Of a stretch of 19,305 nucleotides of DNA, positions 1-18,908 are shown piece by piece. Position numbers and translations under genes: made by a program. Origin of the DNA: a virus (taxonomy: Duplodnaviria; Heunggongvirae; Uroviricota; Caudoviricetes); IMG/VR virus record IMGVR_UViG_3300029828_000038, positions 1 to 19,305 of that record. One strand, 5' to 3'. Positions within the stretch are counted from its first letter, which is position 1, and each line of letters starts with the position of its first letter. Below the pieces are notes generated by a model, which saw only the letters and a list, made by a program, of their open reading frames with translations, was not told the origin of the DNA and searched no databases.

Positions 1-827
1 CCGGAAGTCTCTACCTGTTCTGTGGTCATCGCCTGGCATCTGATATCGAAATCATGATGCGTCAGCGCTTTAATGTGCTGAACCACATTATCTGGGCGAA
101 GCCGTCCGGACGCTGGAACGGATGCAACAAGGAAAGCCTGCGGGCGTATTTTCCGGCAACAGAACGCATTCTGTTTGCTGAACATTATCAGGGTCCATAC
201 CAGCCCAAAAATGACGGCTATGCGGCAAAGGGGCGCGAGCTAAAACAGCACGTCATGGCCCCGCTGATTTCTTACTTTCGTGATGCGCGTGAATCACTGG
301 GAATAACGTCAAAACAGATAGCGGAAGCCACCGGAAAGAAAAACATGGCTTCGCACTGGTTTGGTACCAGTCAGTGGCAGTTACCAAACGAGGGTGATTA
401 CAACAAATTGCAGGCGTTGTTTGCGCGTGTTGCGGCAGAAAAACATCAGCGCGGGGAACTGGAAAAGCCACACCACCAGCTGGTCAGCACATACAGTGAA
501 CTGAACCGGCAATATGCCAGCCTGCTGGAAGAGTACAAATCCCTGCGGCGTTATTTTTCCGTATCGGCAGCCGTTCCTTATACGGATGTCTGGACGCATA
601 AACCCGTGCAGTTTTATCCGGGCAAACATCCCTGTGAAAAACCGGCGGATATGCTCCGGCAAATAATCAATGCCAGCAGTCGCCCTGGTGATTTGGTTGC
701 TGATTTTTTTATGGGGTCTGGCTCAACAATAAAAGCGGCACTTTCACTGGGACGCCGTGCGATTGGCGTGGAACTGGAGGAAGAGAGATTTAATCAGACT
801 GTAAGTGAAATAAAAAATAATCGTTAA
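1..827 (+). CDS. DNA methyltransferase, N6-adenine/N4-cytosine (PF01555-like) family; 5' end lies outside the window
   Basis: Reading frame is open from window position 3 with no stop, through the track ORF 54..827. The protein carries HPCEKP (HPTQKP-like) followed by DLVADFFMGSGST (FxGxG AdoMet motif) and GRRAIGVELEE, the characteristic C-terminal half of this family. The DPPY-type motif would be upstream of the window. Confidence 0.75.
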   Translation, partial: GSLYLFCGHRLASDIEIMMRQRFNVLNHIIWAKPSGRWNGCNKESLRAYFPATERILFAEHYQGPYQPKNDGYAAKGRELKQHVMAPLISYFRDARESLGITSKQIAEATGKKNMASHWFGTSQWQLPNEGDYNKLQALFARVAAEKHQRGELEKPHHQLVSTYSELNRQYASLLEEYKSLRRYFSVSAAVPYTDVWTHKPVQFYPGKHPCEKPADMLRQIINASSRPGDLVADFFMGSGSTIKAALSLGRRAIGVELEEERFNQTVSEIKNNR

Positions 828-1426
828 ATACGGATAACATTATTTCTGAAATTAAGAAATAATAGAAATATATACATATGTTTACGAATATTAACGTGAA
901 TTTCCATTGAAAAGAGAACAGGCATCATTAGTATTAATTTGAGTTCCGAGGGTATACCCCGAAGAACCAGTGCCGACTTAGTTCAGCAATCAGAGCAGGT
1001 GGCTTGTAACATCAGGTCACCAGTTCGATTTCTCAGTCGGTACCGTATGCGGGTCGATTCCCGCTGTTCCAGAAGTAACGAGATAGGTAGTTTTGGGCGC
1101 TGGCACATTAAATATGTGGGATGTTTCACCCTCTCTCCTTACCGCATCCAGCCTGTAATGAAAGTTATTTGTTACGGTACCAGTGCCATCTTTTTACAAT
1201 AGCGGAATGGTGCATTATTGGTAGATATTTTGTATTTCATGGCAGGGTCGGTGATGCATCATTCCGGTGTTGTAAATAACACCGCCGGGGTGTTCCTCAG
1301 TGCGGGGGTGGTTCAAGAGTCGGTTTAGCGGGAAGCCACAGTATCCATACAGTATGGAGTACTTCGGGAGGCACCCGACGCCCTGGTTTTACTACAATAA
1401 AAATAACTTATCTTCTGCATTGACCA

Positions 1427-1452
1427 GCCGCCCCCACCGGGCGGTTTTTTTA
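1427..1452 (+). terminator. Intrinsic terminator-like hairpin plus T-tract
   Basis: Stem CCGCCC (1428-1433) / GGGCGG (1439-1444) with loop CCACC, followed by T7 (1445-1451). No coding sequence overlaps it. Confidence 0.55.
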
Positions 1453-1536
1453 TTCTGAATTCCCCAAAAAAAGAAAACACGGACACTGATAATGCCCGTG
1501 TGGCAATGCCATGTAAGTCAGCGATGAATATGGCGC

Positions 1537-1570
1537 AAAAAAAAAGCGCGGCTGTCGGATTAAAGCCGCG
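1537..1570 (-). terminator. Intrinsic terminator-like hairpin plus U-tract on the minus strand
   Basis: A9 at 1537-1545 on the + strand (U9 following the hairpin on the minus strand). Stem CGCGGCT (1547-1553) / AGCCGCG (1564-1570) with a 10-nt loop. Convergent with the + strand terminator at 1427..1452. Confidence 0.4.
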
Positions 1571-1829
1571 GGACAAAGTCCGTGAAGAAGAATAAGCATC
1601 GGTCTCCTCCAGGAGACGAGTTGATATTACTAAGCTTTAAAAATGGTTTAAATCCCCGTATTAACCTTAATTTCAGATAAGCTTTATTTCATTTCTTCGC
1701 GCCACGCCCGGCGCATATCAAAAAGCCACAGAGCCTTTCAGGGGTGAGCTTACGGGATGGTCAGTGTGACTTTCTCTGTGGGCTGGTCACCCCGGGGCGC
1801 AGGCTCACCCACTAAAAGGAAAAGTCACG

Positions 1830-2255
1830 ATGTTTGGTATTTTCAAAAAGAAAACCCGCAAGGCCATTACTGAAGTAAAGAAAATGGAGAACCGCGACGC
1901 AGTGGAGGCGACCGTCTGGGGTGCGTATTCCATCGCATTCGCCGACGACACCTGTGACGCGAAAGAAGTCGCGGTACTGGAGAAAACCATTGCAGCACTT
2001 CCTGCCTTTGCGCCGTTCTCCGGTGAGATTGCACAAATGAGTGCAAATATCCGCGCCCGTTATGAAGCGTCGCCGCGCTCTGCCAATGCTGAAGCCCTTC
2101 GTCAGCTGGCTGACGTGGCAGGTACTGATGACGCAGTTAATGTGCTGTGCCTGTGTCTGGATATCGCTGACCAGGATGGCATTGGTCCGGATGAAGAAGC
2201 ACAACTCAAGAAAATTGCTCAGGCACTGCAGTTGCCGCTGGAGCAGTACCTGTGA
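1830..2255 (+). CDS. TerB-like (tellurite-resistance TerB family) protein, phage cargo gene
   Basis: ATG at 1830 preceded by AAAGGAAAAG. The 141-aa product has the TerB-type acidic motif DIADQDGIGPDEEAQLKKIAQAL and predicted helical character. It sits between terminator-like hairpins, upstream of the lysis genes. Confidence 0.7.
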   Translation: MFGIFKKKTRKAITEVKKMENRDAVEATVWGAYSIAFADDTCDAKEVAVLEKTIAALPAFAPFSGEIAQMSANIRARYEASPRSANAEALRQLADVAGTDDAVNVLCLCLDIADQDGIGPDEEAQLKKIAQALQLPLEQYL

Positions 2256-2404
2256 AAAGTGCGCGCCTTGTGCTGGCTGCCATCCTGCTGTTTCTGGTAG
2301 TGGTGGTGGATTTCACCGGACGGCTGATGTCGGTGCTGGCAGATGGTGTGCTGGTGGCGATGGCGCTGGCCGTACTCCGGCCTTTACTGCGCAAATCTGA
2401 ATAA
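2252..2404 (+). CDS. Small hydrophobic two-helix membrane peptide (50 aa), translationally coupled to the TerB-like gene; not in the ORF track
   Basis: GTG at 2252-2254 overlaps the TerB stop TGA 2253-2255 (GTGA), with GGAG at 2240-2243 upstream. Hand translation: (M/V)KSARLVLAAILLFLVVVVDFTGRLMSVLADGVLVAMALAVLRPLLRKSE, stop TAA 2402-2404. Codons are CTG/GTG-rich. It falls below the apparent 60-aa cutoff of the track. Confidence 0.4.
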   Translation: MKSARLVLAAILLFLVVVVDFTGRLMSVLADGVLVAMALAVLRPLLRKSE

Positions 2405-2455
2405 CACCACACAAAAGGCATCTGCGGGTGCCTTTGACGGGGTGTTGTTTTTTAC

Positions 2456-2477
2456 GGGCCGCTGGTGGCCCTTTTTT
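2456..2477 (+). terminator. Intrinsic terminator-like hairpin plus T-tract upstream of the lysis genes
   Basis: Stem GGGCC (2456-2460) / GGCCC (2467-2471) with loop GCTGGT, then T6 (2472-2477). A second hairpin AGGCA/TGCCT lies at 2416-2433. Confidence 0.5.
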
Positions 2478-2495
2478 ATTTACAGGAGAAAAAGT

Positions 2496-2888
2496 ATGTC
2501 TGAACCCTTATCCGGTTCCGGCACGGCTGCGGCGCTCGGCGGGGCGACGGTATTCGGGCTGTTTACCGGAACGGATTTCGGGATTGTGTTTGGTGCGTTC
2601 GCCGGGGCGTTGTTTGTGGCAACGATGCCGCAGAAGATTTCAGCCTGGCGTGTGGCGGCACATTTTCTGGTGTCGTTCATTGTTGGTGTACTGGGGGCGC
2701 GTGTACTGTCAGCCTGGATTGCATCAAAAACAGGTTATGACGGTACATCTGCGGATGCACTGTGTGCGGTGCTGGTGGCGGTGGTGTCGGTGAAGATTCT
2801 GTCGTTCATCCACCAGCAGGATATCGCATCACTGGTGTCCGGCCTGTTCTCGCGCCTGCGGGGTGGAGGAGGCGGCAATGTTAAGTAA
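2496..2888 (+). CDS. Putative holin / lysis membrane protein (three predicted TM segments)
   Basis: ATG at 2496 preceded by ACAGGAGAAAAAG; this is the in-frame internal start of track ORF 2343..2888. The 130-aa product has three hydrophobic segments and a charged Gly-rich C-terminus, and lies immediately upstream of the endolysin. Confidence 0.55.
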   Translation: MSEPLSGSGTAAALGGATVFGLFTGTDFGIVFGAFAGALFVATMPQKISAWRVAAHFLVSFIVGVLGARVLSAWIASKTGYDGTSADALCAVLVAVVSVKILSFIHQQDIASLVSGLFSRLRGGGGGNVK

Positions 2889-3153
2889 CCTTCCCGGATT
2901 GCTGAATGTGGCGTTATGCACGGTTATCGTGCTGACGCTCTTTTTTTATCGTCGCCGTGATTCCAGACATAAACCGCTGATGTCATGGCTGGCCTGGCTA
3001 CTGATGCTGCTTTATGCCTTTGCACCACTCAGCTATCTGTGCGGTCGCCCGTTAGCGGCGAACTGGCTGGCGGTGGGGCTTAATCTGCTGTTCTGCGTGC
3101 TGGTGATACGTGCACGCGGGAACGTCACAAAAATCTTTCCAATGTTGAGGTGA
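2878..3153 (+). CDS. Second lysis-cassette membrane protein (holin/antiholin-like, about three TM segments)
   Basis: ATG at 2878 preceded by GGAGGAGG, overlapping the upstream gene by 11 nt. The 91-aa product is hydrophobic with basic loops (FFYRRRDSRHK). Its stop TGA 3151-3153 is 2 nt before the endolysin start. Confidence 0.5.
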   Translation: MLSNLPGLLNVALCTVIVLTLFFYRRRDSRHKPLMSWLAWLLMLLYAFAPLSYLCGRPLAANWLAVGLNLLFCVLVIRARGNVTKIFPMLR

Positions 3154-3155
3154 AT

Positions 3156-3533
3156 ATGTCGGGTAAATTCAGATTCAGCCGTCGCAGTGAAAAAAATCTG
3201 GAGGGCGTCAAACCACAGCTGGTTGCTGTCGTTCGCCGTGCGCTGGAGCTGACGGAGGTTGATTTCGGTATTACGGAAGGCCTGCGCAGTAAGTATCGCC
3301 AGAAACAGCTGGTTGCGGCAGGGAAAAGCCAGACCATGAACAGCCGCCACCTGACAGGTGATGCGGTGGATGTTGTGGCCTACATTGGCAGCCAGGTGTC
3401 ATGGGACTGGCCTCTGTACGAGAAAATAGCGCAGGCATTTAAGCAGGCTGCCGCAGAGCTGGGAACTACCATCGAATGGGGCGGTGAGTGGCGGTCCTTA
3501 AAGGACGGGCCTCACTTTCAGTTGAAACGCTGA
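3156..3533 (+). CDS. Endolysin, L-alanyl-D-glutamate peptidase (peptidase M15 / VanY-like, phage T5 Lys-like)
   Basis: ATG at 3156 with GAGGTG upstream. The 125-aa product has the T5-Lys-like pattern: KFRFS..SEKNL..VKPQL..RRALEL, the zinc-ligand motif SRHLTGDAVD, and C-terminal EWGGEW...DGPHFQL. Confidence 0.85.
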   Translation: MSGKFRFSRRSEKNLEGVKPQLVAVVRRALELTEVDFGITEGLRSKYRQKQLVAAGKSQTMNSRHLTGDAVDVVAYIGSQVSWDWPLYEKIAQAFKQAAAELGTTIEWGGEWRSLKDGPHFQLKR

Positions 3534-3547
3534 TAACCAGGTGTGTT

Positions 3548-3730
3548 ATGAGCAGAAAACACTGGACACACAGAATGCCGCGAACGGCGGCGAAATGGGC
3601 ACTGGTAGCGATACTGGTGCCTTTTTTATTGGTGGGATGCGTCAGCCTGGATAAGGCGCGCCAGCTTTTCGATACGGCTTCTCAGGTCTGCGAAATTGTT
3701 GACGGTGTTCGGCAGTGTCTGCAGAACTGA
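3548..3730 (+). CDS. Small outer-membrane lipoprotein, lysis-associated (spanin-like position)
   Basis: ATG at 3548 with AGGTG upstream. Signal peptide with basic n-region, hydrophobic core and lipobox LVGC. The mature part is 30 aa (CVSLDKARQLFDTASQVCEIVDGVRQCLQN), with Val at +2 and three Cys. It starts 14 nt after the endolysin stop. Confidence 0.6.
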   Translation: MSRKHWTHRMPRTAAKWALVAILVPFLLVGCVSLDKARQLFDTASQVCEIVDGVRQCLQN

Positions 3731-3901
3731 TCGCCCGTAAGAGCAGAATATTTTGCTGAAAAATGAAGGATGCGTCAGCGCCCGGAAAGCATGAAATTCT
3801 GTGTTTGCGGTCATTCAATAAAATAAATTCTTTCTTTCGCCGCGAATACTCAAATGTTGATCAGCGCCAGGTGCGGCGACGGGCTTCGATATCAGGAGAC
3901 G

Positions 3902-4180
3902 ATGATGGGAAAAACAGAAAACAAACCGATTTTAGTTGGTGTCGCGTCTATTCCGTTTAAGTTTGAACTGTCACAACTGGTGGAAGTATGCATCAGTGAT
4001 GAATGGGGTGAGGTTAAAGCTCGCGCTCAGTATGCAGATGGCGAAAACCAGTACTTGCTCCACTACAAAGCTGCTGATGGTCGTGCCACGACGGAGTGGT
4101 TTGGTGAATCAATGCTGGAAGCAACAGAAGATGCTCGTCATCCGGGCTGTCCGGTATTTGCCTTCATGAAATTACCGTAA
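3902..4180 (+). CDS. Hypothetical protein (92 aa, soluble), candidate cargo gene
   Basis: ATG at 3902 preceded by TCAGGAGACG. No TM segment or recognisable motif. It is preceded by a 170-bp AT-rich spacer and followed by the palindrome GTTACTGAGTAAC (4190-4202) and the hairpin GCAGCCC/GGGCTGC (4213-4235). Confidence 0.5.
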   Translation: MMGKTENKPILVGVASIPFKFELSQLVEVCISDEWGEVKARAQYADGENQYLLHYKAADGRATTEWFGESMLEATEDARHPGCPVFAFMKLP

Positions 4181-4262
4181 GGTGCGGTAGTTACTGAGTA
4201 ACAGGCATTACAGCAGCCCTTCAGTGAGGGGCTGCGATAATGCCGGTATTAAGGAGATTCCA

Positions 4263-4613
4263 ATGCCATCACGAATCCCCCGCGCATGCCGTAAGCGAGG
4301 TTGCGCAGGCACGACAACAGACAGCTCTGGCTACTGCGATAAACATCGGGGTGAAGGCTGGGTGCAGCACCAGCGCGGACTGAGCCGCCACCAGCGTGGC
4401 TATGGCTCAAAATGGACGGTGATTCGAGCCCGTATTCTGAAGCGCGATAAAGGTCTGTGTCAGTTGTGTCTGCGTGTCGGTGTGGTGCGCGAGGCGAAAA
4501 CTGTCGACCACATCATCCCGAAAGCACATGGCGGAACAGATGCAGACAGCAACCTGCAGAGTCTGTGCTGGCCCTGCCACAAAGCGAAAACAGCGCGCGA
4601 ACGAATCAGGTGA
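4263..4613 (+). CDS. HNH endonuclease (packaging-associated, HK97 gp74-like position)
   Basis: ATG at 4263 with AAGGAG upstream. The product has Cys-rich zinc-finger-like CRKRGCAG...CDKH and the HNH core DHIIPKAHGG...N...CWPCHKAKT. It lies directly upstream of the terminase small subunit. Confidence 0.85.
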   Translation: MPSRIPRACRKRGCAGTTTDSSGYCDKHRGEGWVQHQRGLSRHQRGYGSKWTVIRARILKRDKGLCQLCLRVGVVREAKTVDHIIPKAHGGTDADSNLQSLCWPCHKAKTARERIR

Positions 4614-4760
4614 TAATTATTCTCACTTGTGGGGAGGGGCGGGTAAAATCCCTGCAGCCCTGGCTGCTCAGTACCGCCGCCTGACCTTTCCTCGCATCGC
4701 CGCAGGTTCGAAAACTTTTTTTTGGGAATGCGATCAAACGATTGATAGGTAAAACCGATT
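4614..4760. other. Candidate cos / packaging-initiation region between HNH endonuclease and terminase small subunit
   Basis: A 147-bp non-coding gap with G-rich GGGGAGGGGCGGG, the hairpin GCAGC-CCTG-GCTGC, the GC block CCGCCGCCTGACC and a T9 run. The position matches the cos site of HK97-like phages. The exact cut site cannot be determined. Confidence 0.3.
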
Positions 4761-5243
4761 ATGTCAGGACCCCCGAAAACCCCGCCACGCCTGCATTTGA
4801 TACGAGGCAACCCATCAAAGCGCCCCGTTAAAGACCCCAAAAAAACCGCTAAAAAGGACGAAAAAGGTCTCCCTAAAATTCCGCAACATTTAGGGGCGCA
4901 GGGGAAGTACTGGTTCAGGCGAATGGCGGAAGAACTGAATGCGGAAGGGATCATTTCTCAGCTTGATGCGCGTGCACTCGAGTTGCTGGTGGAAGCCTAC
5001 ACCGAATACCGGCATCACTGCGAAATACTCGATGTTGAGGGTTATACCTACCGCACGGAAACGCAGAACGGTGATGTGCTGATTAAGGCACACCCGGCTG
5101 CTGCGATGAAAGCGGATGCCTGGAAGCGGATCCGGGCGATGCTTGCAGAGTTTGGTATGTCACCGGCAAGCCGGGCGAAAGTAAATACCGCCGGACCGGA
5201 TGATGTTGATCCGCTGGCGGAACTTTTAAAAGCGAGAGACTGA
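4761..5243 (+). CDS. Terminase small subunit, P27 family
   Basis: 160-aa product with a basic N-terminus (PKTPPRLHLIRGNPSKRP...) and the P27-family core YWFRRMAEEL...LDARALELLVEAY...HPAAAMKADAWKRIRAMLAEFGMSPASRAK. Its stop overlaps the large-subunit start (TGATG). Confidence 0.85.
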   Translation: MSGPPKTPPRLHLIRGNPSKRPVKDPKKTAKKDEKGLPKIPQHLGAQGKYWFRRMAEELNAEGIISQLDARALELLVEAYTEYRHHCEILDVEGYTYRTETQNGDVLIKAHPAAAMKADAWKRIRAMLAEFGMSPASRAKVNTAGPDDVDPLAELLKARD

Positions 5244-7000
5244 TGGCAAAAGTGGCTGACGGGATCCGCTACGCCGAACGTGTTGTTGCAGGAGAAATTG
5301 TCGCTGGCGAATTTGTCCGTCTGGCCTGCCAGCGTTTTCTTGATGATCTGAAGTACGGCGAAGAGCGGGGGATTTATTTCAGTGAACCCCGTGCGCAGCA
5401 CATCCTGAATTTCTACAAATTTGTGCCCCATGTAAAAGGGGCGCTGGCAGGCCAGCCCATTGAACTGATGGACTGGCATGTATTTATTCTCATTAATATT
5501 TTTGGTTTTGTCATTCCGCTGGTCAATGAAGAGACCAGGGAAGTTGTTATGCGCAGCGATGGCAGCGGACGTCCGGTGATGGTGCGCCGGTTCCGGACGG
5601 CGTACAACGAAGTCGCCCGTAAAAACGCAAAATCAACCCTGTCATCGGGTATCGGTCTGTATATGACGGGGGCAGATGGTGAAGGCGGGGCTGAGGTGTA
5701 TTCAGCCGCAACCACGCGTGACCAGGCCAGAATCGTGTTTGAAGACGCCAAAAATATGGTCAGAAAAGCCCGGTCGACACTCGGGCGATTGTTTGATTTC
5801 AACAAGCTGGCGATTTACCAGGAGCAGAGCGCATCAAAATTTGAACCGCTTTCTTCGGATGCAAACAACCTGGATGGTCTGAACATCCACTGCGCCATTA
5901 TTGATGAGCTGCATGCACATAAAACCCGCGACGTGTGGGACGTTCTGGAAACGGCAACTGGTGCCCGTCTGCAGTCCCTGTTATTTGGTATCACCACGGC
6001 TGGCTTTAACAAGGAAGGGATTTGTTACGAGCAACGCGATTACGCCATCAAGGTATTGCGTGGCTATAACAGTGACGTGGAGGGCGCGGTAAAAGACGAC
6101 TCTTACTTTGCGATCATTTACACGCTCGATGAGGGAGATGATCCGTTTGATGAAACGGTCTGGCAGAAAGCGAATCCCGGCCTGGGCATCTGTAAACGCT
6201 GGGATGATTTGCGTCGTCTGGCGAAAAAAGCGAAGGAGCAGGTTTCTGCGCGGGTGAATTTTTTCACGAAACACATGAATGTGTGGGTCACTGCCGAATC
6301 TGCCTGGATGGACATGATTAAGTGGGAGAAGTGCGAATACATTGCTCCACAGCATGAGCTGAAAACATATCCCATGTGGGTCGGTGTAGACCTTGCTCAT
6401 AAGATTGATATCTGTGCGGCGGCAAAACTCTGGCGAACCGATAACGGACATGTTCATGCTGATTTTAAATTCTGGCTCCCGGAAGGACGGCTGGAGCGGT
6501 GCTCGCGGCAGCAGGCAGAACTTTACCGGAAATGGGCGGAGATGGATAAGCTCATCCTGACGGATGGTGATGTTATCGATCATGCTCAGATAAAAAGTGA
6601 CTTACTGGAATGGATTGGTGGTGAAAACCTGAGGGAGCTGGGATTTGACCCGTGGAGTGCAATGCAGTTCAGTCTGGCTCTGGCTGAAGAAGGGATACCG
6701 CTGGTGGAAGTTCCGCAGACGGTCCGCAATCTGTCAGAGGCTATGAAGGAAACGGAATCACTGGTCTATGCCGGGCGTTTTCACCACAGCAATCACCCGG
6801 TCATGAACTGGATGATGTCTAACGTTACGGTAAAACCGGACAAAAACGACAATATCTTCCCGAACAAATCCACGCCTGAAGCCAAAATCGACGGTCCTGT
6901 TGCGATGTTTACAGCAATGAGCCGGATGCTGGTCAATGGCGGTGAACCGGAGCCGGATCTGTCTGAGCATCTGGTCAGCGTTGGTATTCGCTCGCTTTAA
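5243..7000 (+). CDS. Terminase large subunit (Terminase_1-like)
   Basis: 585 aa, size and position typical. ATPase-like N-terminal region and nuclease-like C-terminal region by pattern. Coupled to the small subunit. Confidence 0.9.
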
Positions 7001-7011
7001 CCGAGGGCATT

Positions 7012-7194
7012 ATGTTTCTGATAATTCTCACGCCACTGGTGGGCGTGCTGGGGGCGCTTTTGCTGGCGTATGGCGCCTGGCTGATTTATCCCCCGGCAGG
7101 TTTTGTTGTTGCCGGGGCGCTGTGTCTGTGCTGGTCGTGGCTGGTTGCGCGTTATCTCGATCGCGGTCACCGGGTCGCCTCTGGAGGTGAGTAA
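7012..7194 (+). CDS. Small two-helix membrane protein (60 aa) between terminase and portal
   Basis: ATG at 7012, 11 nt after the terL stop, with GAGGG upstream. Product [60 protein letters not shown] has two hydrophobic helices and a charged tail. Its stop TAA overlaps the portal ATG (TAATG). Confidence 0.5.
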
Positions 7195-8435
7195 TGTTTT
7201 TCCAGGGGCTTTTTCAACGCAAAAATAACACCCCCGTCACAACGCCCGGGATGCTTGCGGAAGAGCTGGGGTTGTCATACGACACCTATACCGGAAAGCG
7301 GATCAGCAGCCAGCGGGCCATGCGGCTGACGGCGGTCTATTCCTGCGTCAGGGTGCTGGCTGAGTCTGTTGGTATGCTGCCCTGCAGTCTCTACAAAATC
7401 AGCGGCACCCTTAAAACACGGGCGGTGGATGAACGGCTGCATAAGCTGATTTCGGCAAAACCCAATGGCTACATGACGCCGCAGGAATTCTGGGAACTGG
7501 TTATCGTCTGCCTGTGTCTGCGGGGTAATTTTTACGCCTACAAGGTAAAGGCACTGGGGGAAGTGGTGGAGCTTCTTCCGATAGATCCGGGCTGTGTGGA
7601 ACCGAAGCTGAACAGCCAGTGGCAGCCGGTTTATCAGGTGACGTTTCCGGATGGTTCCGTGGATGTGCTGACCCAGAATGAAATCTGGCATGTGCGTACC
7701 CTGACGCTGGATGGACTTGTCGGTCTGAATCCCATTGCATATGCGCGCGAGGCCATTTCACTGGCAGCGGCAACCGAGGAGCATGGTGCCAGATTGTTTG
7801 GCAATGGCGCGGTAACATCCGGTGTGTTGCGTACGGATCAACAACTTTCTGACCAGGCTTATGCGCGTATCAAAAAGGATTTTGAGGAACGGCATGTCGG
7901 GCTGGGAAACTCTCATCGTCCGATGATTCTGGAAATGGGGCTGGACTGGAAAACGGTGGCACTGAATGCCGAGGACAGCCAGTTCCTGGAAACCCGCAAG
8001 TTTCAGCTGGAAGAAATCTGTCGCCTGTTCCGCGTGCCGCTGCATATGGTGCAGAACACCGATCGCGCCACCTTCAACAATATTGAAGAGCTGGGGCTTG
8101 GTTTCATTAACTATTCCCTTGTGCCGTATCTGACCCGTATTGAGCAGCGGATCAATACAGGGCTGGTCAGGGAGAGCAAGCAGGGAAAATTTTACGCCAA
8201 GTTTAATGCCGGAGCATTGTTGCGTGGCGACATGAAATCCCGCTTTGAAGCGTATGCCACGGGGATCAACTGGGGGATTTATTCCCCTAATGACTGCCGT
8301 GATCTGGAAGATATGAATCCCCGACCGGGCGGTGATGTGTATCTGACACCGATGAACATGACCACCAGTCCCTCTGCTGGCGATGACAACGGTAAGAAAA
8401 AGGAGAGTGGAGATGCAGACAAAACAGCGTCTTGA
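7194..8435 (+). CDS. Portal protein, HK97 family
   Basis: 413 aa, immediately downstream of terminase and upstream of the prohead protease. Sequence pattern typical of Phage_portal family. Confidence 0.9.
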   Translation: MFFQGLFQRKNNTPVTTPGMLAEELGLSYDTYTGKRISSQRAMRLTAVYSCVRVLAESVGMLPCSLYKISGTLKTRAVDERLHKLISAKPNGYMTPQEFWELVIVCLCLRGNFYAYKVKALGEVVELLPIDPGCVEPKLNSQWQPVYQVTFPDGSVDVLTQNEIWHVRTLTLDGLVGLNPIAYAREAISLAAATEEHGARLFGNGAVTSGVLRTDQQLSDQAYARIKKDFEERHVGLGNSHRPMILEMGLDWKTVALNAEDSQFLETRKFQLEEICRLFRVPLHMVQNTDRATFNNIEELGLGFINYSLVPYLTRIEQRINTGLVRESKQGKFYAKFNAGALLRGDMKSRFEAYATGINWGIYSPNDCRDLEDMNPRPGGDVYLTPMNMTTSPSAGDDNGKKKESGDADKTAS

Positions 8436-9063
8436 TATACCGCTGAACCTGAAATCCGTCAGTGATTCCGGGGAATTTGAAGGTTACGGTTCTGTTTTTG
8501 GTGTTAAGGACAGCCACGATGATGTGGTGGTCCCCGGAGCCTTTACCACAACACTCCAGAAATGGAGCGAAAAAAAGGCGCTGCCTGCGTTGCTCTGGCA
8601 GCACCGCATGGATGAGCCCATCGGTGTGTACACCGAAATGAAAGAAGATGATGTCGGGCTTTATGTCAGGGGACGATTACTCATTGATGATGATCCCCTG
8701 GCAAAACGTGCACATGCCCATATGAAGGCCGGTTCTTTAACCGGCCTTTCTATTGGCTACATCCTGAAAGACTGGGAGTACGACCGGGAAAAAGGGGTAT
8801 TCCTGCTGAAAGAGATCGACCTGTGGGAGGTCAGTCTGGTGACGTTTCCTTCCAATGATGAAGCACGCATCAGCGATGTGAAAAATGCGCTGGCGCGTGG
8901 GGAGATCCCTGATCAGAAAATTATTGAGCGGGTCCTGCGCGATGTTGGACTCTCGCGAACCCAGGCCAAAGCATTCATGGCCGGGGGATATGGCGCTTTA
9001 TCCCTGCGTGATGCTGAGGATGTGGATGCCGCACTGAATGCACTGAAAAATCTTAAATTTTAA
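8413..9063 (+). CDS. Prohead protease, HK97 family (peptidase S78/U35)
   Basis: ATG at 8413 with AAGGAGAGTGGAG upstream. Chosen over the track start 8383, which has no RBS. Conserved region GYGSVFGVKDSHDDVVVPGAF and position between portal and capsid. Confidence 0.85.
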   Translation: MQTKQRLDIPLNLKSVSDSGEFEGYGSVFGVKDSHDDVVVPGAFTTTLQKWSEKKALPALLWQHRMDEPIGVYTEMKEDDVGLYVRGRLLIDDDPLAKRAHAHMKAGSLTGLSIGYILKDWEYDREKGVFLLKEIDLWEVSLVTFPSNDEARISDVKNALARGEIPDQKIIERVLRDVGLSRTQAKAFMAGGYGALSLRDAEDVDAALNALKNLKF

Positions 9064-9076
9064 TCAGGAGTAAATA

Positions 9077-10303
9077 ATGGCTGTTGATATTAAAGACGTT
9101 GAACAGGTCGCGCAGGATTTGCAGCAGAAGTTTGACGATTTTAAGGCAAAAAACGACAAGCGCATTGACGCGATCGAACAGGAAAAAGGCAAGCTGGCCG
9201 AACAGGTGGAAAGCCTGAACGGGCAAATCAGCGAGCTGGAGAACCTGAAAAGCGACCTGGAAAAAGAGCTGGCAGACATCAAGCGTCCGGCAGGCGGCAC
9301 GCAAAATAAAGTTGCCGGTGAACACAAAGAAGCGTTTATCGGATTTATGCGCAAGGGGCGTGAAGACGGTCTGCGTGAACTTGAACGTAAGGCGCTTCAG
9401 GTAGGTAATGATGAAGATGGTGGTTATGCCATTCCGGAAGAACTGGATCGTACCATCCTGACGCTACTGAAAGATGAGGTGGTGATGCGCCAGGAAGCCA
9501 CTGTGATCACCCTCGGTGGCTCGGATTATAAAAAACTGGTGAATCTGGGCGGCACAACGTCCGGATGGGTGGGGGAAACGGATGCTCGTCCGGAAACCGC
9601 CACCTCAAAACTGGGTCTGATTGAACCCTTTATGGGGGAAATCTACGGCAACCCGCAGGCCACCCAGAAAATGCTCGATGATGCTTTCTTCAATGTGGAA
9701 GACTGGATCAACAGTGAGCTGGCGCTGGAATTTGCCGAGCAGGAAGAAATTGCCTTTACCAGTGGCGACGGCAGCAAAAAACCAAAAGGTTTTCTGGCTT
9801 ACGAGTCCACCGATGAAGATGACAAGACCCGTGCGTTTGGCAAACTTCAGCACATTGCTTCCGGTGCGGCTTCCGGCGTGACTGCCGATGCGATCATTAA
9901 ACTGATTTACACCCTGCGCAAGGCGCACCGCAGCGGCGCGAAGTTTATGATGAACAACAGCAGCCTGTTTGCCATTCGTCTGCTGAAGGATAACGACGGA
10001 AATTATCTGTGGCGTCCGGGTATTGAGCTGGGTCAGCCTTCTTCTCTGGCAGGGTATGGCATCGTTGAGAATGAACAGATGCCGGATATTGCTGCCGATG
10101 CAAAAGCCATTGCGTTTGGTAACTTCAAACGTGGCTATACCATCGTTGATCGCATCGGTACCCGTATCCTGCGCGATCCGTACACCAATAAACCGTTTGT
10201 GGGTTTTTACACCACCAAGCGAACCGGCGGTATGCTGGTGGATTCTCAGGCGATTAAGCTGATGAAAATTGGGGCCGCAACCCGCCAGAAAGCCGCTGCG
10301 TAA
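9077..10303 (+). CDS. Major capsid protein, HK97 family, with N-terminal coiled-coil delta (scaffold) domain
   Basis: ATG at 9077 with AGGAG upstream. 408 aa. The N-terminal ~100 aa is a coiled-coil (KFDDFKAKNDKRIDAIEQEKGKLAEQVESLNGQISELENLKSDLEKELADIK), followed by a capsid-fold region. Confidence 0.9.
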   Translation: MAVDIKDVEQVAQDLQQKFDDFKAKNDKRIDAIEQEKGKLAEQVESLNGQISELENLKSDLEKELADIKRPAGGTQNKVAGEHKEAFIGFMRKGREDGLRELERKALQVGNDEDGGYAIPEELDRTILTLLKDEVVMRQEATVITLGGSDYKKLVNLGGTTSGWVGETDARPETATSKLGLIEPFMGEIYGNPQATQKMLDDAFFNVEDWINSELALEFAEQEEIAFTSGDGSKKPKGFLAYESTDEDDKTRAFGKLQHIASGAASGVTADAIIKLIYTLRKAHRSGAKFMMNNSSLFAIRLLKDNDGNYLWRPGIELGQPSSLAGYGIVENEQMPDIAADAKAIAFGNFKRGYTIVDRIGTRILRDPYTNKPFVGFYTTKRTGGMLVDSQAIKLMKIGAATRQKAAA

Positions 10304-10336
10304 TGCGGTTTTTTATGCCCGCACAGTGTTGCGGGC
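10293..10336 (+). terminator. Structured intercistronic element after the major capsid gene (weak terminator-like hairpin plus a second strong hairpin)
   Basis: CCGC (10293-10296) / GCGG (10305-10308) followed by T6 (10309-10314), then the perfect hairpin GCCCGCA (10317-10323) / TGCGGGC (10330-10336) directly before the RBS of the next gene. Confidence 0.3.
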
Positions 10337-10347
10337 AGGAGTTTCTG

Positions 10348-10665
10348 ATGGCAGCAATAGTGGAAAAACTCAGGGCGCAGTGCCGTATTGATACAGATGA
10401 TGCAACTGATGATGAGTTACTGATGCTGTATTTCCGGGCTGCCTGCCGCAAGGCAGAAAATTTTATCAACCGTAAGCTTTATGAGGAGACGGTGCCGGAA
10501 GGTGATCCTGACGGGGTGCTTATAGCTGATGATGTTTTGCTGGCGCTCATGTTGCTGGTCGGACACTGGTACGAAAACCGGGAAAATTCCTCAGATGTCA
10601 GCAAGGCACCAGTTCCGTTTGGTTTTTCTTCTCTGCTGGAGCCTTATCGTTTTATTCCTTTGTAG
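10348..10665 (+). CDS. Head-tail adaptor / connector protein (gp6-like, Phage_connect_1)
   Basis: ATG at 10348 with GGGCAGGAG upstream. Chosen over the track start 10303, which would read through the hairpins. Motif MAAIVEKLRAQCRIDTDDATDDELL typical of this family. Confidence 0.8.
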   Translation: MAAIVEKLRAQCRIDTDDATDDELLMLYFRAACRKAENFINRKLYEETVPEGDPDGVLIADDVLLALMLLVGHWYENRENSSDVSKAPVPFGFSSLLEPYRFIPL

Positions 10666-10673
10666 GAGGAACC

Positions 10674-11012
10674 ATGCAGGCGGGCAGATTACGTGATCGC
10701 GTAACTATTCTGAATGTCACCACCGTCCGTTCTCCGTCAGGGCATCCGGTGGAGACAATGACGGAGGGGGCAACCGTATGGGCAGAAGTTAAGGGGATCA
10801 GCGGGAGGGAGAGAATATCAGGAGGTGCAGAAACCGCTCAGGCTACGGTCAGAGTCTGGATGCGATTTCGGCGCGATGTGACAGCGACTTCACGTCTGAA
10901 AGTGCTGACCGGTGCATTTAAAGGGGTCACTCTTGGTATAGAAGGGCCACCAATACCGGATGCACGCGCCACCCGGCTTGAAATGCTCTGCAGTCTGAAG
11001 GGGAATGTGTGA
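10674..11012 (+). CDS. Head closure protein (Phage_H_T_join, SPP1 gp16-like)
   Basis: ATG at 10674 with GGAGGA upstream. 112 aa with pattern RDRVTI...VWAEVKGISGRE. Position after the adaptor. Confidence 0.8.
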   Translation: MQAGRLRDRVTILNVTTVRSPSGHPVETMTEGATVWAEVKGISGRERISGGAETAQATVRVWMRFRRDVTATSRLKVLTGAFKGVTLGIEGPPIPDARATRLEMLCSLKGNV

Positions 11013-11458
11013 TGGATTTCAGTCTTGATTTTTCAGGTCTGGCGGATATTGCACGGGATCTGGAGACGCTCAGCAGGGCAGAAAACAATAAGGTTCTGCG
11101 CGATGCCACCCGTGCCGGTGCTGAAGTTATGCGGGATGCAGTTGTTGAACGTGCGCCGGAGCGAACCGGGAAACTGAAGAAAAATGTGGTTGTTCTCACG
11201 CAGCGTTCAAAGCGTCGGGGGGAAATTATCTCGGGTGTCCACATTCGCGGACGGAACCTGCGAACCGGAAACAGTGATAACAGCATGAAAGCCAGCGATC
11301 CCCGAAATGCGTTTTACTGGCGCTTTGTGGAGCTGGGAACGATAAACATGCCCGCGCATCCGTTCATTCGCCCGGCTTTCGATACGACAGAGGAACTGGC
11401 AGCACAGATTGCCATACAGCGAATGAATCAGGCTATTGATGAGGTCTTAAGTAAATGA
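11012..11458 (+). CDS. HK97 gp10-family protein (neck / tail-completion)
   Basis: ATG at 11012 overlapping the upstream stop (TGATG); the track begins 3 nt earlier at GTG 11009. Motif VVERAPERTGKLKKN and ...HPFIRPAF typical of the family. Confidence 0.8.
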   Translation: MDFSLDFSGLADIARDLETLSRAENNKVLRDATRAGAEVMRDAVVERAPERTGKLKKNVVVLTQRSKRRGEIISGVHIRGRNLRTGNSDNSMKASDPRNAFYWRFVELGTINMPAHPFIRPAFDTTEELAAQIAIQRMNQAIDEVLSK

Positions 11459-11799
11459 GGGAAGCCACACTGTATTCCCTGCTGTCTCAACTGGCCGGAG
11501 GACAGGTTTATCCTTATGTGGTCCCGCTGACGGAGGGAAAGCCTGCGGTATCTCCGCCGTGGCTGGTGTTTTCTGTGGTGTCTGACACGGCGTCTGATGT
11601 GCTTGATGGTCAGGCTGAATCCAGAATTACCGTGCAGATCGATGTCTGGGCAACAGTACCTGATGACGCAGATGATATCCGTGAGCAGGCGCTTGATGCG
11701 GTAAGGCAACTTGCACCCTCCGTTATTTCTAAAACTCAGGGTTATGATCCTGATTCCCGTCTGAGCAGAGCCACGCTTGAATTTCAGGTAATAGCCTGA
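11455..11799 (+). CDS. Tail terminator-like protein (DUF3168-like, lambda gpU position)
   Basis: ATG at 11455 overlapping the upstream stop (ATGA). 114 aa. Position directly upstream of the major tail protein. Confidence 0.7.
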   Translation: MREATLYSLLSQLAGGQVYPYVVPLTEGKPAVSPPWLVFSVVSDTASDVLDGQAESRITVQIDVWATVPDDADDIREQALDAVRQLAPSVISKTQGYDPDSRLSRATLEFQVIA

Positions 11800-11820
11800 G
11801 GTCGTTAATGATTTTACCCA

Positions 11821-11846
11821 CCCGCCGCTGGCGGGTTTTTTATTTT
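11821..11846 (+). terminator. Terminator-like hairpin plus T-tract between tail terminator and major tail genes
   Basis: Stem CCCGCC / GGCGGG with loop GCT (11821-11835), followed by TTTTTTATTTT. Immediately upstream of the RBS CAGGAGACG of the major tail gene. Confidence 0.45.
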
Positions 11847-11858
11847 CAGGAGACGAGT

Positions 11859-12563
11859 ATGTCCTCTAATTTTGAGCGTTCGCAACTGACGAAAATTATG
11901 ATTTCGTCTGCACCGGTAACAGCAGAAACCCTGGATTCTGCCAGCTATCTTGGCCTGAGCTGTACAATCAAAGAGGTGCAGTTTACCGCAGGACAAAAGC
12001 AGGATATTGATGTCACCACGCTGTGTTCTGTTGAGCAGGAAAATATTAACGGCCTTGGTGCCGCGTCAGAGATTTCCATGTCAGGCAACTTTTACCTCAA
12101 TGCTGCCCAGAACGCGTTGCGCAGTGCCTATGACAATGACACCACGTATGGCTTTAAAGTTATTTTTCCGTCAGGCAACGGATTTACCTTTATGGCAGAG
12201 GTGCGTCAGCATACCTGGTCTGCAGGAACTAATGGTGTTGTGGCTGCAACGTTTTCCCTGCGCCTGAAAGGTAAACCTGTGCTGACGACAGAGCCGCTGA
12301 AAGTGAAGGTCGATTTAAACAGCACGCTGCAGGTTTCTGCCGGAGCGAAACTCGAAATGGTGGTTGAGGCTGCCGGTGGTGTGCCGCCTTATTCTTATGT
12401 CTGGAAGAAAGGTAGTTCTCCTGTTTCCGGACAGACGGCGGCAACATTCAGTAAGGCATCAGCAGCATCAGGTGATGCCGGTGCGTATACCTGCGAGATT
12501 TCTGATTCAGCAAGCCCTGTTAACAAGGTGACCTCCACTTCCTGCACTGTTACCGTCAGTTAA
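11859..12563 (+). CDS. Major tail (tube) protein with C-terminal Ig-like (Big_2-type) domain
   Basis: ATG at 11859 with AGGAGACGAG upstream; the track start 11808 would read through the hairpin. The C-terminal ~90 aa has the Ig-like signature (...PPYSYVWKKG...AGAYTCEISDSAS...TVTVS). Confidence 0.85.
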   Translation: MSSNFERSQLTKIMISSAPVTAETLDSASYLGLSCTIKEVQFTAGQKQDIDVTTLCSVEQENINGLGAASEISMSGNFYLNAAQNALRSAYDNDTTYGFKVIFPSGNGFTFMAEVRQHTWSAGTNGVVAATFSLRLKGKPVLTTEPLKVKVDLNSTLQVSAGAKLEMVVEAAGGVPPYSYVWKKGSSPVSGQTAATFSKASAASGDAGAYTCEISDSASPVNKVTSTSCTVTVS

Positions 12564-12577
12564 TGAGGATAGATGTG

Positions 12578-12949
12578 ATGACTAAAAATATCCGCAATCT
12601 GGCACTGGCAACGATGTCGGGGTTTCGCCATAAAACTGTTGATGTGCCTGAATGGGAAGGGGCAACGGTTGTATTACGGGAACCTTCTGCAGAAGCCTGG
12701 TTGCGCTGGCAGGAGATCGTTAAAGCAAAAGATGATGAGACACCGTTATCCGTTGCGGAGCGCGCCCGCCGAAATCTGGAGGCAGATGTTGAACTGTTCA
12801 TTGATGTTCTGTGTGATACCGGACTGCAACCTGTATTTTCAGAGGATGATCGTGAACAGGTGATTGCCGTGTATGGCCCGGTGCATGCGCGGCTTCTTCG
12901 GCAGTCTCTGGAACTGATCAGTGATGCCGGCGAGGTTAAAAAAAAGTAG
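12578..12949 (+). CDS. Tail assembly chaperone (lambda gpG equivalent)
   Basis: ATG at 12578 with GAGGATAGATGTG upstream; the alternative start is ATG 12563, coupled as TAATG. The ORF ends ...GEVKKK then TAG 12947-12949, immediately after the slippery heptamer. Confidence 0.75.
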   Translation: MTKNIRNLALATMSGFRHKTVDVPEWEGATVVLREPSAEAWLRWQEIVKAKDDETPLSVAERARRNLEADVELFIDVLCDTGLQPVFSEDDREQVIAVYGPVHARLLRQSLELISDAGEVKKK

Positions 12950-13251
12950 AGCTTCCGGGGATGCGTTTTCTGATGATGCTGGCGCTCAGGATGGGGCGCA
13001 CATTGTCAGAGTTACGCCGGGAAATGTCCGCATCAGAAATCATGATGTGGGCAGAATTTGACAGGTACAGCCCGCTGGGTGACGAGCGGGCTGATATCCG
13101 GGCTGCCCAGATAGTTTCTGCGGTTTACGGTGCGCAGGGTGTCAAAGTCCCACTGAATGATGCGCTTCTTCAGTGGGAACAAGAGCAGACAGAAGGCGTC
13201 TCAGATCCATTTGCCGGACTGGAAAACGCGCTTTTAATAGTGTCTCAGTGA
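12578..13251 (+). CDS. Tail assembly chaperone frameshift fusion product (lambda gpGT equivalent), made by a -1 shift at 12940-12946
   Basis: Frame relationship verified by hand: G is in frame 2 and the downstream ORF (track 12961..13251) is in frame 1. The fusion would read ...GEVKKK-VELPGMRFLMML... to the stop at 13249-13251. Position between major tail and tape measure matches the conserved G/GT arrangement. Confidence 0.6.
12940..12946 (+). other. Slippery heptamer A AAA AAG for -1 programmed ribosomal frameshift (G to GT)
   Basis: In the G frame the codons are AAA (12941) AAG (12944) TAG (12947). The -1 frame has a stop at 12937-12939 and is open from 12940 (AAA AAA GTA GAG CTT CCG GGG ATG...) into the downstream ORF ending 13251. 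Confidence 0.65.
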
Positions 13252-13260
13252 GTCAACATA

Positions 13261-13280
13261 ACCGCTTCGGCGGTTTTTTT
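13261..13280 (+). terminator. Terminator-like hairpin (UUCG tetraloop) plus T-tract upstream of the tape measure gene
   Basis: ACCGC-TTCG-GCGGT (13261-13274) followed by T7, then the RBS GGAGA and ATG 13291. Confidence 0.45.
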
Positions 13281-13290
13281 CGTCCGGAGA

Positions 13291-16200
13291 ATGAGTGTGG
13301 CGACATTACGTGAACTGATTATTAAAATCTCGGCAAATTCCCGGTCATTCCAGTCAGAGATCTCCCGGGCTTCGCGTATGGGGCAGGATTACTACCGTAC
13401 CATGCAGAACGGAGGCCGGCAGTCCGCTGCTGCATCCCGTGAAATGCGGCGTGCACTGGCAGAAGTGACGGATCAGATAAATACAGCTAAATCTTCGGCA
13501 CTGAATATGGCGGGGGCATTTGCCGGAGCTTTTGCTACCGGTCATCTTATTTCTCTCGCCGATGAGTGGAATTCAGTAAATGCCCGTCTGAAGCAGGCTT
13601 CACAGTCCAGTGATGATTTTCAGGTATCACAACGTGAATTAATGGCAATCAGCCAGAGAACGGGAACGGCGTTTTCTGATAACGCCAGCCTTTTTGCCCG
13701 CTCTGCAGCTTCCATGCGGGAGTATGGCTACAGTTCTGAGGAGGTACTGAAAGTCACCGAGGCGATCTCCACGGGCCTGAAATTATCCGGTGCCAGTACA
13801 GCAGAAGCCAGTTCGGTGATCACGCAGTTCAGTCAGGCACTGGCGCAGGGAGTGCTGCGCGGTGAAGAATTTAACTCTGTGAATGAGAACGGCGATCGTG
13901 TTATTCGTGCGCTGGCTGCGGGAATGGGTGTTGCCCGTAAGGATCTGAAGGCCATGGCGGATAACGGAAAACTGACCGCCGATAAGGTTGTTCCTGCACT
14001 GATTAGTCAGCTTGGGGCGTTGCGTGATGAATATGCAGCAATGCCTGATACTGTTTCATCCTCTGCAACCAAAGTTGAAAACGCCTTTATGGCCTGGGTT
14101 GGTGGTGCGAACGAGGCAAGCGGAGTGACAAAGACACTCACCGGGGTGTTGAATGGTGTTGCAGACAATATTGATACCGTGGCTGCTGCAGCTGGCGCAC
14201 TGGTTGCCGTCGGGGTAGCCCGATATTTTGGCAATATGGCGTCGTCTGCTGGATCTGCAACTGCCGGATTAATTACTGCAGCCAGAAACGAAGTGGCTCT
14301 TGCTGAAGCGCAACTTCGGGGGACACAGATAGCAACCGCCAGGGCGCGTGCGGCGGTTTATCGTGCGCAACAGGCGGTTGTTGCTGCTCGCGGTACCGAA
14401 AGGCAGGCCGCAGCAGAAGCGAAGCTGACAGCTGCCCAGGCGTCACTTACCCGTAATATTGCGGCCAGAACAGCGGCACAGACAACGCTGAATACTGTCA
14501 CGTCAGTGGGGAGTCGTCTGTTAAGTGGTGCGCTGGGGTTGGTTGGTGGTGTGCCGGGACTCGTCATGCTGGGGGCGACGGCCTGGTACACGATGTATCA
14601 GAATCAGGAGCAGGCCAGAGAATCTGCACGCCAGTATGCCGCAACAATCGACGAAATTCGCCAGAAAACGTCGGCAATGTCGCTTCCTGAAGCGTCAGAT
14701 AATGAGGAAAAGACGCGGCAGGCACTTGATGAGCAAAACAGGTTAATTGACGAGCAGAAAAGTAAGATTAAATCCTTACAGGAAAAAATTGCTGGCTATC
14801 AGTATGTGCTGGCAAACCCGGGCTGGACAACCGATAACGGTTTTATGATTAACCACATGACGTCGGTAAAAACTGTCACAGAAGGGCTTGCAGAAGCAAC
14901 AAATCAACTGGCAGTTGAACAGTCCCGTCTCACACAAATGCAGGGCAAAGCGCAATCCATTCAGGATGTGCTTGCCGGGCTGGAGGAGCGACGGGTGGCG
15001 TTGATCCGTCAACAGGCCGCGGAACAAAACAAAGCGTATCAGTCCCTGTTGATCATGAATGGGCAGCATACCGAGTTTAATCGCCTTCTCGGGCTCGGTA
15101 ATGAATTACTTCAGCAGCGACAGGGGCTGGTGAATGTACCGTTACGGCTACCACAGGCAACCCTGGATGATAAACAGCAGACCGCACTGAATAACAGCGA
15201 GCGCGAACTGGCTCTGTCCCGCCTGAAGGGGGAAGCCCGTGAGCGTGCCCGCCTGGGTTATGCTGCGGATGATCTCGGCTTTGTGGGAGAGGCGTATCAG
15301 ACAGCCAGACAGAATTATATCAATAACTCACTGGATGCCTGGCGAAATAACCAGGCAAATAAACCCAAAGCGCATAAAAAGACCGAAGCGGAAAAAACAG
15401 AAGATATTTATAAACGGCTGATTAAACAGCAAAAAGAACAAATAGCACTGGCAGGGCAGAATACTGAACTGGCTAAGATGAAATATCAGGTCAGTCAGGG
15501 CGAATTATCAACCCTGTCAGAAGCGCAGAAAAAAACGCTTTTGCAGAATGCAGCACTCATCGACCAGAAAAAGATTCGTGAGCAGCTTGCTGCGTATGAG
15601 AGCAGTCTGGCGGACAGTAATGCCAGTGCCCGGGCATCTGACGACGCGCAGTTGCTGGGATATGGTGAAGGCTCACGGATGCGTGAACGACTCCAGGAAA
15701 TGTGGAGTATCCGGCAGACGTTTGAGCAGAAAAATAACGAACTGCTGAGACAGTATCAGGCCGGAGAAATTGAAGAAGCCCTGTGGAAACAGGAGAAAGA
15801 ACTGAATAAAAAATATCTGGAAGAGCGTCTCAGCGATCAGCAGGATTATTATGCAAAGGCCGATGCTTTACGTAATAACTGGAATGCCGGACTCCAGGAA
15901 GGACTGACCAACTGGGCAGACAGTGCCACCGATTATGCTTCACAGGCGGCAGATGCTGTCGTTTCCACGATGGACGGGCTGGTATCAAATATTTCCGATG
16001 CACTGGCCGGGAATGTTGTGGAGTGGAGGAACTGGGGGAGTTCAGTTCTCCGGGAAGTTTCAAAAATTCTGATGAATGCAGCCATTGTTAACGGACTGAA
16101 ATCACTCTCCGGTGCCGGAGGGTGGCTTGGTACGGTCGGCGGATGGATTTCGGGGGCGGTGGCAAACGCAAAAGGTGGTGTTTACACATCGGCAAATCTG

Positions 16201-17556: not shown

Positions 17557-17560
17557 TCCC

Positions 17561-18849: not shown

Positions 18850-18869
18850 TGAAAAACGTTTTATGTGAA

Positions 18870-18888: not shown

Positions 18889-18908
18889 GTCGTTATGGAG
18901 CGTGAGAA

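Follow-up and report, generated by a model that had tools for sequence, protein, structure and literature searches.

The stretch of DNA analysed here, hereafter the window, comprises nucleotides (nt) 1 to 19,305 of IMG/VR virus record IMGVR_UViG_3300029828_000038 (Caudoviricetes) and carries the HK97-type head module of an Escherichia coli prophage. Its genes are arranged in the order lysis cassette, HNH, Terminase_4 small terminase subunit (TerS), large terminase subunit (TerL), a small open reading frame (ORF), PF04860 portal, S78 protease, and PF05065 capsid, with HNH, TerS, the S78 prohead protease, and the capsid protein assigned by Pfam. The small ORF between terL and the portal gene, which encodes a protein of 60 amino acids (aa), is the subject of this analysis (Table 1). 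An initial annotation, made from the letters of the window, had described it as a two-helix membrane ORF at 7012..7194 whose stop overlaps the portal ATG, and the sequence, its hydropathy, an AlphaFold2 (AF2) model, and the Pfam assignments of the neighbours bear out this description, the overlap being the single nucleotide of a TAATG junction. The ORF had also been presented as an oddity wedged into the head operon, and this view is not supported: its product belongs to a catalogued, uncharacterised family, PHROG 502, which recurs as a deeply conserved component of many HK97-type head modules, and the window copy is identical to a RefSeq protein. What is new here is how large and how phylogenetically deep the family proves to be, a coupling to PF04860 portals without exception, an inheritance that follows the portal rather than TerL, and negative outcomes in the comparisons with morons, holins, lambda gpW, T4 gp40, T4 Imm, and HK97 gp15.

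The small ORF is a genuine gene of the late operon, equipped with its own ribosome-binding site, and not a chance ORF, because its frame is the only one without stops in all 14 homologues compared (from E. coli, Shigella, Plesiomonas, Mangrovibacter, Serratia, and IMG/VR contigs), because pairwise ratios of nonsynonymous to synonymous substitution (dN/dS) lie at about 0.1-0.4 in nearly all comparisons, and because the product matches PHROG 502. The other frames are stopped in most of these homologues, third-position changes are in excess, and the most divergent pairs keep the protein core unchanged although their synonymous sites are saturated or nearly so. The kept frame, the dN/dS values, and the conserved junctions described below uphold the earlier proposal of a genuine gene co-expressed with its neighbours. 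A correction concerns the ribosome-binding site, which had been placed 11 nt after the terL stop; that distance belongs to the ATG at 7012, and the Shine-Dalgarno sequence GAGGG lies at 7003-7007. A GAGG-type motif is found at the equivalent position in phiP27, SfII, Plesiomonas, Mangrovibacter, and IMG/VR homologues. The guanine-cytosine (GC) content is about 0.50 in terL, 0.59 in the small ORF, and 0.58-0.59 at the 5' end of the portal gene, a rise that fits Gly/Ala/Leu-rich coding and extends into the portal gene.

Other readings of the same nucleotides were tried and rejected. The RNA of 7001-7200 folds no more stably than shuffled sequence (z=0.30), and the putative terminator annotated inside the small ORF in the SfII record corresponds to a weak 5-base-pair stem followed by only four consecutive T, so the ORF is not read as an RNA element. 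No plausible promoter of its own was recognised, as the single promoter-like match (6997-7025) has its -10 element downstream of the ATG and the gap from terL is only 11 nt. Three overlapping ORFs, at 6936-7190 (+), 6997-7170 (-), and 7103-7228 (+), were discarded, as none of them stays open in the distant homologues. The antisense ORF among them (57 aa) is open in the window, phiP27, and SfII, carries stops in Plesiomonas, Mangrovibacter, and Serratia, and is probably a by-product of GC-rich sense codons.

The 6.4-kDa protein is strongly hydrophobic, with a grand average of hydropathy (GRAVY) of 1.18 and hydrophobic segments at residues 1-25 and 29-46 separated by YPP, and its six charged or ionisable residues (R47, D50, R51, H53, R54, and E60) all fall within 47-60, in agreement with the hydrophobic hairpin and charged C-terminal tail initially described. 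AF2, supplied with a 49-sequence alignment, modelled a helical hairpin with helices at 2-25 and 29-56 and a mean predicted local distance difference test (pLDDT) score of 76. The core motif of the membrane part can be written GxxGxxL(L/I)S(Y/F)GAWL(I/V)YPPAG(F/Y)I..G. In the first transmembrane (TM) helix, TM1, a glycine face is formed by G14 and G21, invariant family-wide, and by G11, invariant among the Enterobacterales members, with W23 conserved. In the turn, Y26, P27, P28, and G30 are invariant and A29 nearly so in alignment A1, and P28 is nearly invariant family-wide. In TM2, G35 is invariant, and C38, L39, W41, and S42 are conserved within Enterobacterales. Across 311 distinct members, lysine plus arginine amount to 1.4 residues per sequence before TM1, 0.06 in the six-residue loop, and 2.5 in the tail; by the positive-inside rule, both termini of this two-TM hairpin are predicted to be cytoplasmic and the YPPAG turn periplasmic, which supplies the topology called for by the initial annotation.

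The tail is poorly conserved except for a terminal GG[EDKN] (alignment A1), and this exception probably exists because the portal Shine-Dalgarno sequence is read as codons there, so that conservation of the last residues would be imposed by the portal translation signal and not by protein function. A GGAGG or GGGGG run stands before the stop in the window (7183-7194) and in loci L002, L003, L007, L041, L045, L068, L075, and L086. When the AF2 model was compared by Foldseek with the PDB and BFVD, only generic helical hairpins and uncharacterised viral proteins were returned, and a sequence-profile search of the PDB gave only an aquaporin at E=0.19.

Table 1. Features at the terL-portal boundary of the window.
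Feature	Position	Strand	Basis or remark
terL, 585 aa, upstream neighbour	5243..7000	+	Pfam PF03354 (1.9e-27), PF20441 (3.7e-52); RefSeq 'terminase large subunit'
terL stop TAA	6998-7000	+	read from sequence
Shine-Dalgarno GAGGG of small ORF, 4 nt 5' of ATG	7003-7007	+	read from sequence
Small membrane-protein ORF, 60 aa	7012..7194	+	PHROG 502 family; product identical to WP_000478597.1
Codons of TM helix 1, residues 2-25	7015..7086	+	hydropathy, AF2, alignments
Codons of uncharged turn YPPAG, residues 26-30, most conserved family motif	7087..7101	+	alignments; 311-sequence charge count
Codons of TM helix 2, residues 31-46	7102..7149	+	alignments, hydropathy, AF2
Codons of variable basic C-terminal tail	7150..7191	+	hydropathy; 311-sequence charge count
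Portal Shine-Dalgarno GGAGGTGA, inside last small-ORF codons (GGA GGT GAG, Gly-Gly-Glu)	7183..7190	+	
Small-ORF stop TAA (start, ATG at 7012)	7192-7194	+	
TAATG junction, 1-nt overlap of small-ORF stop and portal ATG (7194-7196)	7192..7196	+	termination-reinitiation junction
Portal gene, 413 aa, PF04860, downstream partner	7194..8435	+	Pfam 7.8e-107

The window protein matches PHROG 502 ('membrane protein') at E=6.1e-26, with residues 1-54 aligned to profile positions 3-56 of 58, and carries the hallmarks of that family, namely two hydrophobic helices, a YPPAG-type turn, and conserved glycines. The two are homologous over their full length and share the terL-portal position, with no difference in kind. 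PHROG 502 is also the best match for nine of ten divergent members, the protein of phage Evi, discussed below, matching phrog_7105 best and phrog_502 second. Within E. coli, an 801-nt query around the small ORF is 100% identical to two chromosomes, where the product is annotated as WP_000478597.1 'hypothetical protein'. The exact 60-aa protein occurs on at least 987 contigs, and the gene is common in prophages. Among phages, members are annotated in phiP27 (L37, 'putative integral membrane protein'), SfII (SfII_03), SfI, ST64B, 118970_sal3, and phiKO2 (Gp3), and are present without annotation in SfIV (NC_022749) and PY54 (NC_005069). The copies in E. coli, Shigella, and Salmonella phages are 78-85% identical to the window protein, and phiKO2 and PY54 give weaker partial matches; the phiP27 and SfII copies occupy the same terL-portal position as in the window. 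Pfam, NCBIfam, and PADLOC returned nothing significant for the window protein, and Pfam nothing for 49 relatives either. The statement that no role is established for the ORF still stands, since no functional study of the family was found by a full-text literature search, which covered papers other than the phiKO2, phiP27, SfV, and ST64B genome papers, where the gene may be commented on.

The family comprises 165 clusters at 90% identity in Enterobacterales, and a profile search at E<=1e-3 collected 501 clusters at 50% identity, almost all of 45-70 aa. IMG/VR holds at least 560 confirmed loci. The hosts include Alpha-, Beta-, and Gammaproteobacteria as well as Actinomycetota (Streptosporangium, Streptomyces, Actinomadura, and a metagenome-assembled genome (MAG)), and no fusion of the small protein to the portal or to TerL was seen among the matches listed. 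Two apparent occurrences in Firmicutes look like contamination or mis-binning rather than true members: a 1764-bp record, OR844959.1 'Enterococcus phage Efm 3-10', holds a copy 78% identical to the window protein, which is the level of the Salmonella phage copies, and a 'Bacillota bacterium' MAG contig (L117, JAEWTL010000102.1) holds a copy identical to that of an E. coli chromosome (L115).

The position of the small gene is strictly kept. The gene directly downstream is a PF04860 portal gene in 61/61 distinct IMG/VR viral loci, as well as in each of the five genome loci tested, and the upstream gene carries the TerL nuclease domain PF20441 in 43 of 44 cases and the ATPase domain PF03354 in 41 of 44, despite portals that are only 21-35% identical to one another and TerL proteins that are only 15-20% identical. 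Among the 59 distinct IMG/VR junctions, 46 show an overlap of 1 or 4 nt between the stop of the small gene and the start of the portal gene, and in 55 the two lie no more than 4 nt apart in either direction. In Streptosporangium (L106, 841-2427) and Streptomyces (L109, 687-2396), the upstream gene (529-570 aa) has no Pfam match at 1e-5, possibly representing a divergent or different terminase type, and the downstream gene is a clear PF04860 portal; that the portal is kept where a TerL match is missing supports a link to the portal. The initial annotation had raised membrane anchoring of packaging as one possible role, and on this evidence a connection with packaging or terminase gives way to one with the portal.

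Recombination joints point in the same direction. In phiP27 and SfII, the terL sequence differs from that of the window, and homology sets in some 18 nt ahead of the terL stop and continues through the small gene into the portal gene. In phage Evi (LR597642.1), terL is 93% identical to that of the window over its 3' part, and a different portal follows, preceded by a divergent 46-53-aa two-TM family member (L010, 3298-3459, phrog_7105) that keeps G14, G21, and G35. The mosaic joint of Evi lies close to the terL 3' end, and two diverged subfamilies coexist in E. coli phages. Over 52 distinct loci, the partial Mantel (rank) correlation of the small protein was 0.28 with the portal (permutation p=0.001) and 0.11 with TerL (p=0.054), and the small-protein distance was 0.29 for pairs with close portals and distant TerL proteins (n=50) against 0.70 for pairs with close TerL proteins and distant portals (n=4). 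Judged by these sequence comparisons, divergence of the small protein follows that of the portal more than that of TerL. The gene accompanies the head module irrespective of tail type, the same small protein being present in L007, with a sipho-type tail, and in L009, with a contractile-sheath (myo-type) tail. As a separate observation, nearly all portals that follow the small gene (window 7194-7230; L013-L091, alignment A4) start with a short hydrophobic or amphipathic motif and then basic residues, for example MAGLFGALARPK; the N-terminus of HK97 gp3 differs (MEEPKYTIDL...), yet it has GWWARLKSWF at residues 15-24.

Of the explanations considered, the one that fits best, which we favour tentatively and with limited confidence, is that the small protein is expressed late, sits in the inner membrane, and would act in the producing cell as an accessory to the assembly of the portal or procapsid. 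We infer this role by guilt by association, because a gene that holds its position within the terS-terL-portal-protease-capsid array usually serves head morphogenesis. With the portal Shine-Dalgarno sequence in its last codons and its stop overlapping the portal ATG, the small ORF leaves ribosomes that finish it positioned to reinitiate on the portal gene. Two non-exclusive routes can be envisaged, one in which the hairpin oligomerises through its conserved glycine faces into a membrane platform, and another in which co-translational insertion of the hairpin would bring the coupled portal synthesis to the inner membrane. A more specific version, in which a ring of hairpins packed through the invariant glycine faces docks or templates the portal dodecamer and stop/start coupling delivers nascent portal subunits to it, seems rather unlikely as formulated. 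A precedent exists in T4, whose gp20 dodecamer requires gp40 and YidC for its formation on the inner membrane (PMC9958956). T4 gp40/gp20 serves here as a functional model, gp40 being the only documented phage membrane-associated factor that is needed for an inner-membrane portal initiator (PMC9958956), and it differs from the window protein in being 114 aa long and in having no hydrophobic hairpin in its sequence; furthermore, gene 40 adjoins uvsX and gene 41 rather than portal gene 20, and the portals of T4 and the window belong to different families.

A number of observations weigh against an assembly role. What is shown is genetic linkage to the portal, and gene overlap alone would cause co-inheritance, so that both the Mantel result and the mosaic joint would also agree with a function that has nothing to do with the portal. 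The conserved part is the membrane hairpin and its periplasmic turn, whereas the cytoplasmic tail, which would be able to reach the portal, is variable. No homology to T4 gp40 was detected (hhalign probability 0.07%), and the family carries the PHROGs label 'moron, auxiliary metabolic gene and host takeover', a category that is probably wrong for it. In HK97 itself, terL and the portal gene overlap directly with no small gene between them, and 80 close relatives of HK97 have no family member either; as the scan with HK97 gp3 covered only relatives 96-100% identical, these represent one clade without the gene and not an estimate of how many PF04860 portals lack it. HK97 gp3 is 32% identical to the window portal, so the protein is dispensable for this portal type, and the PF04860 portal fold does not require it, which makes it an accessory. 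Whole clades carry or lack the gene, and the HK97 clade lacks it.

The strongest competitor, which we nevertheless consider unlikely, is a superinfection-exclusion or host-takeover membrane protein resembling HK97 gp15 or T4 Imm, whose place in the head operon would be incidental. The PHROGs category, the commonness of the gene in prophages, and the dispensability of the protein for HK97-type heads all agree with such a role, and small inner-membrane proteins encoded in late operons can be exclusion factors, as is HK97 gp15 (PMC3594210). Like the window protein, gp15 is small (62 aa), resides in the inner membrane, and is encoded within a late structural operon in a phage of the HK97 type; it is made in the prophage state and is homologous to the bacterial YebO proteins (PMC3594210). 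The two differ in that gp15 has one hydrophobic segment and its gene belongs to the tail operon, where an intergenic gap precedes it and an annotated terminator follows, whereas the small gene of the window has neither gap nor terminator and is fixed by the portal gene; hhalign gives a probability of 0.18% for homology to gp15, and the 0.21% obtained for T4 Imm led to rejection of that homology too. By the definition in PMC3594210, a moron has its own promoter, its own terminator, and a sporadic distribution, and none of these was found for the small gene: the 11-nt gap leaves no room for a promoter, the only promoter-like match has its -10 element inside the ORF, there is no terminator because the stop overlaps the portal start, and the distribution is strictly positional over deep divergence. 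As for GC content, which in a moron differs from that of the surrounding genes, the small ORF (0.59) lies above terL (about 0.50) and matches the adjacent 5' part of the portal gene (0.58). In addition, an exclusion factor would be expected to track tail type or entry specificity, yet the same protein accompanies sipho-type and myo-type tails. Exclusion and toxicity, two of the roles first proposed, are therefore a poor fit for a gene with no promoter or terminator of its own, a non-sporadic distribution, and a strict position, whereas membrane-linked head assembly accommodates these features better.

Still less probable is a role in lysis timing or membrane permeabilisation, in which a late two-TM hairpin would aid depolarisation or regulate holin action as a holin, pinholin, or antiholin. 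The protein does have the format of class II holins and pinholins, being small, with two TM helices, a basic C-terminal tail, and late expression, and its conserved small-residue faces suggest oligomerisation. However, the window contains a complete, separate cassette at about 2343-3533 with two holin-family genes (Phage_holin_8 and Phage_holin_3_7) and an M15 endolysin (Peptidase_M15_4), distant loci also have their own lysis genes, and in the loci examined the small gene never lies beside the endolysin and always beside the portal gene. No holin family was matched in Pfam by the window protein and 49 relatives or in PHROGs by the window protein and 10 divergent members.

A comparably low likelihood is assigned to a virion or ejection protein, according to which the hairpin would be caught by the nascent portal, carried in the capsid, and released to help form a DNA conduit through the inner membrane. 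Translational coupling to the portal would favour comparable output and the same site of synthesis, and co-inheritance with the portal and conservation across hosts with very different envelopes are likewise in keeping with it. Glycine-rich faces are typical of channel-forming oligomers. On the other hand, a protein with a GRAVY of 1.18 and a positive-inside charge pattern is expected to insert into the membrane of the producer during translation, HK97 infects without it, and no virion proteomics reporting it was found in the literature searched. The last proposal, that the ORF has no protein function and acts as a coupling spacer, as a regulatory upstream ORF setting the portal-to-TerL ratio, or as an RNA element, or is a chance ORF, can point to the portal Shine-Dalgarno inside it, the conserved stop/start overlap, and the putative terminator of the SfII record, but is highly improbable and largely refuted by dN/dS and motif conservation, as members from E. 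coli to Streptomyces share G14, G21, and G35 without exception and P28 almost always, although synonymous sites in the most divergent pairs are saturated or close to it, the RNA fold is unremarkable (z=0.30), and the terminator-like hairpin is weak.

A further comparison concerns lambda gpW, a 68-aa protein whose gene lies between A (terL) and B (portal) and overlaps its neighbours. Homology was rejected, as hhalign gave a probability of 1.9% and only a four-residue PAGF coincidence, and gpW is a soluble head-completion protein, in contrast to the TM hairpin here. Four records (ON470580.1, ON470584.1, ON470603.1, and PQ793804.1) label the small gene 'head-tail joining protein W', which is probably a position-based annotation error.

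Elsewhere in the window, positions 1191-19305 are 97.5% identical to an E. coli prophage (L001, NZ_CP087564.1), and 814-1190 do not match it. The counterpart of this segment in L001 (6566-6998) holds a tRNA-Gly in RefSeq, and ARAGORN found no tRNA anywhere in the window. Positions 814-1190 are a small replaced segment upstream of the lysis genes.

These results bear on how the family is annotated and on how heads of HK97-like phages are built. The moron/host takeover category and the 'head-tail joining protein W' label are both spreading through automated annotation. Should the small protein be an exclusion or lysis factor instead, its deep conservation would be unusual for such a factor and its positional constraint would lack an explanation. 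The coupling of small gene and portal gene extends from phages of E. coli to prophages of Streptomyces, and SfII, ST64B, phiP27, and phiKO2 offer tractable systems in which the small gene could be studied. How the portal vertex is nucleated and how each procapsid comes to have one portal are unsettled in HK97-like phages, and the small protein is an obvious candidate for a role in these steps. Membrane-initiated procapsid assembly has so far been documented essentially for T4, with gp20, gp40, and YidC (PMC9958956); if a hairpin ring did dock the portal, this mode of assembly would be widespread and ancient in HK97-type phages of both Gram-negative and Gram-positive hosts.

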